Positions 1,372 through 59,840 of a stretch of DNA of 64,000 nt are shown here, one piece after another. The DNA is from Heptranchias perlo. Lineage: Eukaryota. Location of the stretch: NCBI RefSeq assembly GCF_035084215.1, contig NC_090326.1, forward strand, positions 79,050,001-79,114,000, written 5' to 3'. Within the stretch, counting starts at the first letter, position 1. Each line of letters begins with the position of its first letter. Under the pieces are notes generated by a model, which did not search any database, had not been told where the DNA came from, and was given only the letters and a program-made list of their open reading frames with translations. The position numbers and the translations under genes are program-made.

Positions 1372-56462
<55,091 letters not shown>

Positions 56463-57291
56463 CTTTCCAACATGGACATTAAAGAAAAGTTTGTATTTTT
56501 TTGTAGTTGTATAATTGATTTTATTTTGTCAAATGCAAAACTGTATTTTTACAGAGCATAAGTACTGTGTGAAAGACTTCAATTATTTTTACTAATGTGC
56601 CTGTAAACAAAGTAATTGAACCACAATGAAAAGAATGGTGCATAACCCTTCATTAACGAGCACTTATTCTTTACTTTTTATTCAAAGACCATCTTTTAAG
56701 AAATTAACTTCTATAATAGTGAATAATCCAGCATCATCTCACTTGAAGAAACAGCCTTGTAATATTAGTTTGTTGTGATCTGTATCTTGTTCATTACATG
56801 ACTGAGAACTTGTTTTGTTGCTTATTTCTACCACATTCAATTGAATTGTATTTTGAGGGGAGAAAAATCACGTGTAAAAGCTGTGCGAGTTCAAGATAAT
56901 TATGCAAATGTAAGAATTTTGATATGAACTTAGTTGAACTCCACTTGATTTTGTAGCTACCTTGTATCCTGGCTTTAGTCATTTAAGTGGACACAGATAT
57001 TTGGTCCCTTTTTCAAAGACCTTTTTACAAACAAATGCTGCTTTAAAACATTAAACATGAGTGTTTCTAATTCTCAGATCTCTCCCTAACCATTGCATTG
57101 AGGTTGACTGTTAACTTCTGTATCAGAAATTGAAAATGCAAAAATCAGTCCTACTAATGTGGTTCAAGCTGCCATTACAGTGCTTTGTACAGAAATGCTC
57201 ATTGTAGTGTAATATTTACATACTGTTTTTTAAATATCAATTATTGAAGCTGATTTACAGTTTTAGAAACTACTTCCCAGCTAAAATGTTG

Positions 57292-57297
57292 AATAAA
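57292..57297 (+). terminator. Candidate poly(A) signal AATAAA in the HYCC1 3' UTR
   Basis: First clear non-repeat AATAAA I found after the stop, about 830 nt into an AT-rich UTR; others follow near 58071 and 58238. Confidence 0.35.
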
Positions 57298-57321
57298 ATC
57301 ATTTGAGTAAAATAATTTGGT

Positions 57322-57442
57322 ACACGGACTGCAGCGGTTCAAGAAGGCGGCTCACCACCACCTTCTCAAGGGCAATTAGGGATGGGCAATAAATGCCGGC
57401 CTTGCCAGCGACGCCCACATCCCGTGAACGAATAAAAAAAAA
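57322..57442 (+). mobile_element. Very short young LINE 3' end in the HYCC1 3' region
   Basis: Differs from the copy at ~43813-43930 at only two positions by eye. Confidence 0.9.
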
Positions 57443-57915
57443 GAACAAAAATTTCCTTTGTACAAACTGCTGTATATCATTCATTGAGGTTTTTATAATT
57501 CATTTCATTTCTCATTATTTTTGTGCTAGACAATATATTGCAGTTACTGAGTAAAGAAAGCCATATTAAAATGGACTTTTAAAGTTTATATATTTTACTG
57601 AACCATTAACACTTGCTAGTCGTGTAGTATTCTTTTAGGCAGTTATATTTGTGCAATTTTTAGTACAAAAATGGAATTGATAAGTCATTTTGTAACATAA
57701 CTCTTATTTGAACTTCCACACATTTTTTTGGTAGGATCACTGGGACTCAGTAAGAGCAGGAAATCAGCTATTCTCCTCTTTCCTCTCCCCTGCCCCCCCT
57801 CCCCCACCGCCAATTCTAGTGCCTAGATTAAGATAAGCCAATTTAGTGCAGATCAGGGGTCAAACCTGACACTTTCCTGGTCTGTATGACTTGGTTCCAA
57901 CAGTACTTTTATCAA

Positions 57916-58007
57916 TTGTAAACAATTTTACAACACCAAGTTATAGTCCAGCAATTTTATTTTAAATTCACAAGCTTTCGGAGATTTTCTCCTTCCTCAG
58001 GCAAATG
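57916..58007 (-). mobile_element. Penelope-like element terminal fragment (92 bp) inside a SINE head
   Basis: acaacaccaagttatagtcc...agctttcggag...ctccttcctcagg is a recalled PLE pseudo-LTR motif; flanked by TTTTATCAA / TTTTGTCAA. Confidence 0.75.
57966..58006 (-). ncRNA. Minimal type I hammerhead ribozyme motif (PLE-associated)
   Basis: Minus strand: AUUUGC-CUGAGGA-A-GGAG-AAAAU-CUCC-GAAA-GC-UU-GUGAAU; conserved core, 4-bp stem II, palindromic AAGCUU stem III, 6-bp stem I. Confidence 0.75.
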
Positions 58008-58829
58008 TTTTGTCAACTGAGTCATATGGATGCCTACATGATGCAATAGCATCAGCATTTAAATGATTTAATAAATAATCACTACATATTTTTATTGGAT
58101 AGATACAGATGAGACATTTAATAGTTGGTTTCAACAGTATTATACTTGGATATTAGTTGATGCCCTATATATTTATATTAACATTCATTTTAAAAAGCTT
58201 GAGCAACAATGTTCTACACTTTAAATATTCTAAGAATAATAAATATCTGATGTAGCAGTATTATTCAGATTTATTCCTTAAAGTTTGATGCAATAGTGGG
58301 AAGAACTAGTTGAAAAGACCACATGCATTCCATAAAAATTGAATTCATCTAAGTGTACACATTGTGTAACATGTGATTCCATCTTAAATATTTCAGACAT
58401 GCACTATAAAACAAACAATTAGAGAAACACCTACCCATCAGTTCTCTAAGTGATAGATAATAGGCACACCTGCTTTGGCTGTCTTTCTATATTTTGTAAA
58501 TTTGTCTTGACTAGAAATGTTTACTTTTGTATTAATACTGGCTTTAAGAATTCAAATGTATTTGTAACCATTTTAATTGTACTGTTTACAATTATTCTAA
58601 ATTAGTATTCTACATTTTAGAATGAGGGTTGACTGAATAATAACTCTCAATTAAAAATTTTAAAAATCAGCATTGCAGTTATCCAAGTTTTAGACAAATA
58701 ATATAAATTGGAGAAAGATCTAATAGACCTGATTTGTCAGTTTCACTAAAATGGAAGAATATGTCTTGCTTTCTGTTACATTTTTTGATTGAGAAGTTTA
58801 ATTTTTTTTTCACATTAGTTGTCTTGTAT

Positions 58830-59840
58830 ATCATGGTGGGTACAGCACAGGAGGCAGCCATTTGGCCTGTTGTGCCTGCACCAACTCTTCAAAAGAGCTA
58901 TCCAATTAGTCCCATTCCCCTGCACTTTCCCCATAGGCCTGTAATTTTTTCCCCCTTCATGTATTTATCCAATTCCCTTTTGAAAGTTACTACTGAATCT
59001 GCTTCCACTATCCTTTCAGGCAATGCATTCCATATCATTACAACTCGGTGTAAAAAAAAATGTTTCCTCATGTCGCCTCTGGCTCTTTTGCCGATCACCT
59101 TAAAATCTGTCCTCTGATTACTGACCCTTCTGCCACTGGAAACAGTTTCTCTTTATTTACTCCATCAAAACCGTTCATGATTTTGAACACCTATCAAATC
59201 TCCTATTAACCTTCTCTGTTCTAAGGAGAACAACCCCAGCTTCTCCAGTCTCTCTCCATAACTGAAGTCCCTCATCCCTGGTACTATTCTAGTAAATTTA
59301 TTTTGTACCCTCTAAGGCTTTGACATCCTTCCTAAAGTGTGGTGCACAAAATTGAACATGCTACAGCTGAGGTCTAACCAATGTTTTATAAAGGTTTAGC
59401 ATAACTTCCTTGCTTTTGTACTCTTATGCCTCTATTTAATAAAGCTCATGATCCCTTTTTTAAAAAAAACAGCCTTCAACTTGTCCTGCCACCTTTTAAA
59501 GATTTGTGTATGTGCACCCCCTTTAAAATCATTTAAAGCATTTACTTTGTATTGCCTCTCCTCATCTAACCAAAATGTATCACTTCTGTGCTAAATTTCA
59601 TCTGCTCATTTCTCCAATCTCTGTCCTCCTGAAGTCTGTTACTATCCTCCACATTGTTTCATGTCATCTGCAAACTTTGATATATAATGATTTGGACTTG
59701 TGTGTAGGGTATAATTTTAAAGAGTGGTGGTCCTCATACTTCCCTCCAGACTGAAAAACAACTGTTCACCACTACTCTGCTTTCTGCCCCTTTGCCAATT
59801 TTGTATCTATGATACTACCGCCCCTTTAATCCCATGGGCC
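58830..59840 (-). mobile_element. CR1 3' portion
   Basis: ORF 58898..59098(-) RGDMRKHFFLHRVVMIWNALP; collinear with other CR1 copies. Confidence 0.9.

Follow-up and report, generated by a model that had tools for sequence, protein, structure and literature searches.

A heterozygous piece of a Penelope-like element with a minimal hammerhead motif in the likely 3′ UTR of a hyccin-family gene of Heptranchias perlo

The window (the whole stretch of DNA that was analysed, 64,000 nucleotides long) carries exons of a hyccin-family gene on the plus strand, identified by a family search, and downstream of these exons a short insert whose hammerhead-like motif reads on the minus strand. The features are listed in Table 1. 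The last hyccin coding exon ends at 56462, and Pfam gave no match in the last two host exons. Contigs from three sequencing runs presumed to be RNA start at the exon edge (55907–55908), as spliced RNA does, and end at 58585–58625, where a DNA run continues; these contigs carry neither strand nor level. An ATTAAA lies at 58650, downstream of the likely hyccin 3′ UTR. Because the presumed-RNA contigs span from the exon edge to 58585–58625 and this hexamer follows, the insert is likely to lie within the 3′ UTR, antisense to the gene. An earlier note on this DNA had the orientation right but placed the insert downstream of HYCC1; it lies instead inside the transcribed terminal exon region.

The same 3′ UTR contains, at about 57320–57443, a SINE-like repeat of high copy number, A-rich at its end and with AATAAA sites, which could supply an earlier poly(A) site. 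Given these upstream AATAAA sites, some hyccin mRNA isoforms may end before the insert. On the plus strand, the pyrimidine tract and CAG at 57984–58001 could plausibly serve as a 3′ splice acceptor within the 3′ UTR. In presumed RNA, whose contig depths carry no level and hence no allele balance, the junction contig has a depth of 44 against 41 and 69 in the flanks. No effect of the insert on the host mRNA is indicated.

Table 1. Features at the insert and in the host gene (positions in the window; a dot marks features without strand).
Feature	Position	Strand	Basis or remark
Hyccin-family terminal exon, stop 56460–56462, likely 3′ UTR to about 58625	55909..58625	+	
Original target 9-mer	57907..57915	.	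As in empty allele, joint 57911–58013
Stretch identical to pLTR, TATA+31 to tail-less 3′ end	57913..58010	-	Exact match; 3 bases at each end common with target
Tail-less 3′ end, first of two putative reverse-transcription start sites	57913..57919	-	
AAUAAA hexamer within pLTR	57956..57961	-	Read through in window copy
Minimal type I hammerhead	57966..58006	-	Descriptor, folding, family alignment
Hammerhead stem I	58006–58001/57971–57966	-	
Hammerhead core; unpaired A	58000–57994; 57993	-	
Hammerhead stem II	57992–57989/57983–57980	-	
Hammerhead GAAA, then palindromic stem III	57979–57976	-	
Predicted cleavage site, after U17 at 57972	57971..57972	-	From hammerhead numbering of PMC4209133
5′ end of copy, TATA+31..+33, putative parent transcription start	58008..58010	-	Also microhomology with target
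Duplicated 9-mer, one new base at 58012	58008..58016	.	Empty allele

Re-reading the letters of the window bore out what the earlier note had seen there, namely the 41-nt hammerhead string, the AAUAAA and the flanking 9-mers. The string contains the core CUGANGA, GAAA and UH, an unpaired base between positions 9 and 10.1, a G10.1–C11.1 pair and a palindromic 15.2–16.2, as compared with PMC4209133. A type I descriptor comprising the core boxes and both stems matched once in the 64-kb window and in none of 100 shuffles, and the minimum-free-energy fold of the monomer contains stems I and II. The folding energy is ordinary (z −1.2, with 21 of 200 shuffles folding equally well). In the fold of the full putative leader, stem II has a pair probability of 0.96 and stem I only about 0.3. 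The 6-bp palindrome forms a duplex of −4.3 kcal/mol, and the active fold is absent from the minimum-free-energy dimer, leaving self-cleavage as a prediction. Rfam models run over 57000–59000 gave seven matches at E ≤ 10, none of them a hammerhead; we attribute this to the limited reach of such models where minimal motifs are concerned, and do not take it as a refutation.

Judged by its letters, the motif is a minimal hammerhead of the known Penelope-like element (PLE) kind. It shares with the described type the core boxes, the unpaired 9/10.1 base, the G10.1–C11.1 pair and the palindromic 15.2–16.2, as well as its place in a pLTR and its occurrence as many single copies. It differs in having a stem II of 4–5 bp, a stem I of 6 bp with two G-U pairs, U at position 17 and very low variability within subfamilies. 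The text of the published description does not mention sharks.

Conservation was assessed in 83 copies chosen by a downstream anchor alone, the ribozyme being disregarded. Core letters deviate in 4 of 996 cases against 119 of 1411 in the other columns between 7 and 35; in these copies the core is nearly invariant, and N7, loop II and stem I are variable. Among descriptor-selected, closely related rows, helices I and II are paired in 97.8% of 319 cells compared with 26–48% in slid controls; nine of 38 variants, comprising junction chimeras, a gapped one and some singletons, were left out of this count. Changes in these rows keep pairing, though two-sided changes occur at 0 of the 11 helix pairs.

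The insertion is heterozygous and recent, because an empty allele is present both in the same individual and in a relative. A contig of the empty allele joins 57911 to 58013, skipping 101 bp, with four letters that fit either side; its depth is 8.4 against 17–20 in the flanks, in contigs of the same individual. The same joint is found in a related organism, and the junction of insert and target is unique in the genome. The earlier note had given the insert as 92 bp, which is correct for the part not shared with the target; the match to the element is 98 nt long, three bases at each end being common with the target, and the copy itself amounts to 95 bases.

The empty site keeps the A-type 9-mer, which is therefore the original, and the G at 58012 is new. 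Eight nucleotides of the duplicated 9-mer and 58017 match the start of the element tail in reverse complement. We consider that the new G was probably templated by the tail, in preference to a point mutation. Inverted pieces primed at the tail often stop at the tail start elsewhere (L023, L026, L073 and L078). Two points, along with the unique junction, count against the run-off reading proposed below: such an inverted tail piece is rare among solo tail-less copies (2 of 38), and the 9-bp duplication here is shorter than the usual 10–14.

The whole match is identical, base for base, to the pLTR of an intact tandem element at locus L075, in line with the Penelope origin that the earlier note had proposed for this minimal type I hammerhead. 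The parent forms a tandem array with a period of 3081 bp, two full units of which carry an open ORF of 902 aa. Loci L075 and L076 together (C1:4460200–4476000) form a tandem array inside a simple tandem repeat, with two intact, identical-looking ORFs. The 902-aa ORF matches RVT_1 (E 3e-10, above the cut-off) and, at its C-terminus, GIY-YIG (E 7e-4; 20.3 bits, just under the cut-off of 22.6). Its translation, read by eye, has a CX4CxxC linker and CCHH residues; the Neptune/Nematis group is defined by a CX2-5CxxC linker before the endonuclease and a CCHH motif (PMC8557442), and the parent ORF has both. As in EN+ PLEs, the parent has a single ORF running from the RT to a C-terminal GIY-YIG and tandem units that form pLTRs, and its family shows inverted 5′ copies, a one-sided tail of 30–40 bp and a target site duplication.

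The family is very large. A search of the genome with the insert gave 59 matches at 96–100% identity among the 40 best of 794 candidates. A 37-mer lying 3′ of the ribozyme has 41,231 exact matches in the genome, compared with none for its reversed control, and the ribozyme core of subfamily A, to which the window copy corresponds, occurs exactly at 9,281 places. Relative to the parent, the 5′ end of the insert (hereafter the stub) lies about 30–31 nt downstream of the pLTR TATA box and its 3′ end about 36 nt upstream of the ORF ATG, just before the tail. The putative RNA leader is 131 nt long, without an upstream ATG, and the stub covers most of it; the unit is thus better described as leader than, as the earlier note put it, as ribozyme plus poly(A) signal.

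The 3′ ends of the family were counted in the first 100 of the 41,231 37-mer places, three small duplicate groups being kept; loci L001–L030, the top BLAST matches, are biased towards the query ends and were left out of all end counts. The ends fall into two types: 42 of 100 lie at the tail-less site (0–5 tail bases), 58 at the tail end or past it (33 or more), and none between. In head-to-head pairs the tail is on exactly one arm in 61 of 63, and 57 of these 61 have a duplication of 9–14 bp. The window copy is solo and tail-less; it runs about 43 nt past the AAUAAA with no poly(A), so the hexamer did not end its template. One-sided tails are known in PLEs (PMC3846280; PMC8557442). In vitro, the PAc element (Poseidon of Anolis carolinensis) is reported to start reverse transcription at two internal sites and to extend two strands (PMC11167929), and by analogy the one-sided tails seen here fit such a scheme.

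Several head-to-head copies have further peculiarities. At L086, L091, L092 and L096 (4 of 54 pairs) the ribozyme columns that tell subfamilies apart disagree between the two arms, which hints at two RNA templates within one insertion; 10 of 54 pairs show a difference of any kind. At L019 (C21:50879415–50882516) several telomere-type repeats stand between the inverted arms, as if telomerase or telomeric RNA had extended the cDNA end before joining, and the L045/L046 junction contains about 35 nt of G/A-rich sequence of unassigned origin between its inverted arms.

The 5′ ends cluster at a set distance from the TATA box. In the subfamily A sample (n = 98; two rows from L100 included, four tandem duplicates left out) 16 copies end at TATA+31 and 32 at +30 to +36, and in a mixed sample 21 of 100 end at +30 to +33. 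Initiation about 30 nt after a TATA box is the standard geometry of polymerase II. The peak at +30 to +33 is found alike in subfamilies A and B, whose ribozyme core starts at +41, and in subfamily C, where it starts at +47/48. Lesser clusters occur around the TATA box in subfamily A (+4 to −5, 7 of 98) and, for several C copies, at +16 to +18. The earlier note had said that random 5′ ends would speak against an independent element; the ends are not random, being set by their distance from the TATA box.

Two other sources of these 5′ ends were rejected. A 3′ splice site, as at the intron of the Drosophila virilis element, finds no AG before +30/+31 and no common upstream exon. Cleaved RNA as the main template is at odds with the ends themselves, none of 100 lying exactly at the predicted cut and only four within 2 nt of it. 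Recurrent junctions are seen as well: the same inverted junction, with arms to +31 and +36 and three shared bases, occurs at the unrelated sites L082, L105, L122, L130, L146 and L148, and a second one, at a palindrome near +23, at L098, L112 and L123.

We propose, with a probability of about 0.7, that the insert is an exact, heterozygous 95-base piece of the pLTR of a young autonomous PLE, likely produced by internal priming and run-off at the 5′ end of the RNA. This reading is supported by the identity to an intact element with RT and GIY-YIG, by the thousands of identical cores and by the empty allele, and further by the two fixed types of 3′ end and by a 5′ pile-up that stays locked to the TATA box even where the spacing between TATA and ribozyme differs. 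The TATA box and the insertion ends suggest that the pLTR promoter would start RNA at TATA+31. The element protein would then prime at the tail-less site in its own 5′ leader and copy 95 nt to the RNA end. Its endonuclease would make a staggered cut, and the cDNA end would join the other target end through three shared A's, the second DNA end likely priming briefly at the tail and so templating the new base at 58012. The template was presumably uncut RNA, because the copy includes the entire ribozyme; for PAc, priming at two internal sites and use of uncut RNA as substrate are both reported in vitro (PMC11167929). Copies with coding capacity would need read-through RNA with a downstream pLTR and tail.

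The most serious alternative, which we consider unlikely, is an ordinary 5′-truncated PLE end: reverse transcription would have begun at the 3′ pLTR of a read-through RNA and broken off prematurely, and the pile-up at +31 would reflect A-rich microhomology or an RT pause. A-rich microhomology does attract junctions, most +31 junctions sharing A's with the target or the partner arm, and the smaller clusters also fall at A/T-rich spots. Templates of the read-through kind are equally common: 43 of 98 subfamily A copies run beyond −40, well upstream of the TATA box, and an early stop on such a template could therefore also yield a short copy. Moreover, single minimal hammerheads have already been ascribed to truncated PLEs (PMC4209133).

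Against this alternative stand the peak itself, which tracks the TATA box and not the ribozyme in both A and C, and genome-wide counts with exact probes. Subfamily A copies reaching +41, +34, +22 and +8 number 9,281, 8,084, 5,290 and 4,850, and C copies reaching +35, +22 and +3 number 12,271, 4,417 and 4,052. The raw losses are 35% from +34 to +22 and then 8% in A, and in C 64% from +35 to +22 and then 8% over the next 19 nt. The probes miss variants (10 of 100 rows fail the C probe at +22 and 4 of 100 the A probe at +22); corrected for these misses, the losses are about 60% against 17% in C and 32% against 12% in A, and even so the loss per base is 3- to 7-fold lower upstream of +22. Subfamily C provides an internal control for sequence context, having the same 10-nt motif at +10 and +24 with a cliff only at +24: far fewer copies are lost at the one that lies 14 nt further upstream.

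The run-off reading can be extended to the group, and on this extension we are evenly balanced. PLEs would make strong-stop-like cDNA, the RT priming at two leader sites that bound the tail and running off the capped start, with a third to a half of all insertions in this genome being stubs. One priming site would serve each cut DNA end, and the ends of the stubs would show in vivo where transcription starts and where the two priming sites lie. Coding copies would come from read-through RNA alone; the ribozyme, at 39 nt from the cap, would serve as a brake by removing the leader, and not as a copying step. As part of the same extension, and with the same even weight, the parent family would be inserting at present, to which the heterozygous site and the intact tandem ORFs point.

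The earlier note had offered a truncated PLE end or a tiny retroelement; a piece of a PLE is supported, and the second suggestion, a non-autonomous ribozyme element akin to a retrozyme or SINE, one unit in transcription and in copying, is very improbable. About 5 of the 98 sampled subfamily A copies are solo and tail-less and start at +31 to +34 like the window copy, from which several hundred genomic copies may share both its ends, as the earlier note had wondered, without being an independent element. PLE-derived non-LTR retrozymes are reported in vertebrates (bioRxiv 10.64898/2026.07.22.740005), and like the stub they are small and non-coding, with a type I hammerhead and an origin in a PLE pLTR. 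They are, however, tandem repeats with a ribozyme in each unit (at least two ribozyme-bearing units make a retrozyme), whereas the stub is present once and the ribozyme does not determine its ends: the window holds one match and no tandem units, and the 5′ end lies 39 nt upstream of the predicted cut, not at it. The unit is identical to an autonomous pLTR, and long and short copies with the same subfamily letters occur in every subfamily. It appears to have no promoter, the TATA box lying 30 nt upstream of it; a SINE-like element would combine its own internal promoter with its own copy lineage, a combination that the insert does not present. The Anolis element, in the account of PMC11167929, needs RNA downstream of the priming site, which is absent here. 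That the insert is a co-opted hyccin regulator, cutting antisense RNA or altering the 3′ UTR, is scarcely credible: its likely 3′ UTR position and the near-invariant core columns of the family might suggest it, but a heterozygous insertion absent from a relative has had no time for co-option, the conservation belongs to the parent element, and monomeric minimal hammerheads show no detectable cleavage (PMC4209133).

On the run-off reading, the stub itself is likely inert and a dead end, because it lacks a promoter and a tail and because neither the descriptor nor a sequence match gave a second hammerhead in the window. Activity of its ribozyme is predicted only where antisense RNA arises and either the element protein or a second ribozyme assists.

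Comparison with described elements places the family among known systems. It resembles EN+ Neptune/Nematis PLEs, as portrayed in PMC8557442 and PMC3846280, in its RT and C-terminal GIY-YIG with CCHH, CX2-5CxxC linker, tandem pLTRs with TATA/Inr-like motifs, inverted 5′ copy, one-sided tail of 30–40 bp and target site duplication. Unlike the elements portrayed there, it has tens of thousands of copies and 5′ ends piled up at TATA+30 to +33. Those accounts attribute head-to-head inversions to self-priming on antisense RNA, and they derive solo pLTRs from recombination or deletion. With PAc (Frangieh et al. 2024, PMC11167929) it shares, on the reading given here, a pair of neighbouring internal RT start sites on either side of the tail, nicking and extension of both strands, AT-rich targets, uncut RNA as the main substrate and, in that system, a protein-assisted ribozyme. 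PAc belongs to a different clade and its ORF begins inside the ribozyme, whereas the parent ATG here is at the tail end; the parts of that report used here describe no run-off at the transcription start. The Penelope element of D. virilis likewise has its promoter in the pLTR (Schostak et al. 2008, PMC2377424), which is described as TATA-less and internal, with a nearby intron; here, by contrast, a TATA box lies upstream of the putative start and is not copied into the stub.

The ribozyme class, the element class and the layout of the insertion have thus all been described before. We found no description of PLE run-off at the transcription start in the literature searched, subscription papers and supplements lying outside it. 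What is new are the genome-wide end counts with their internal control, the empty allele and the position in a 3′ UTR. The single insert is ordinary; the family is useful for understanding the integration mechanism of PLEs and the role of their hammerheads, and its near-identical copies, which number in the tens of thousands, its intact ORFs and the heterozygous site offer a direct read-out in vivo. Lying in a likely 3′ UTR, the insert lends itself to an allele-specific test of the host mRNA. Should the 5′ cliff mark the transcription start, this would explain thousands of lone hammerheads that share ends without any retrozyme, and would make this young element testable in vitro in the same way as PAc.
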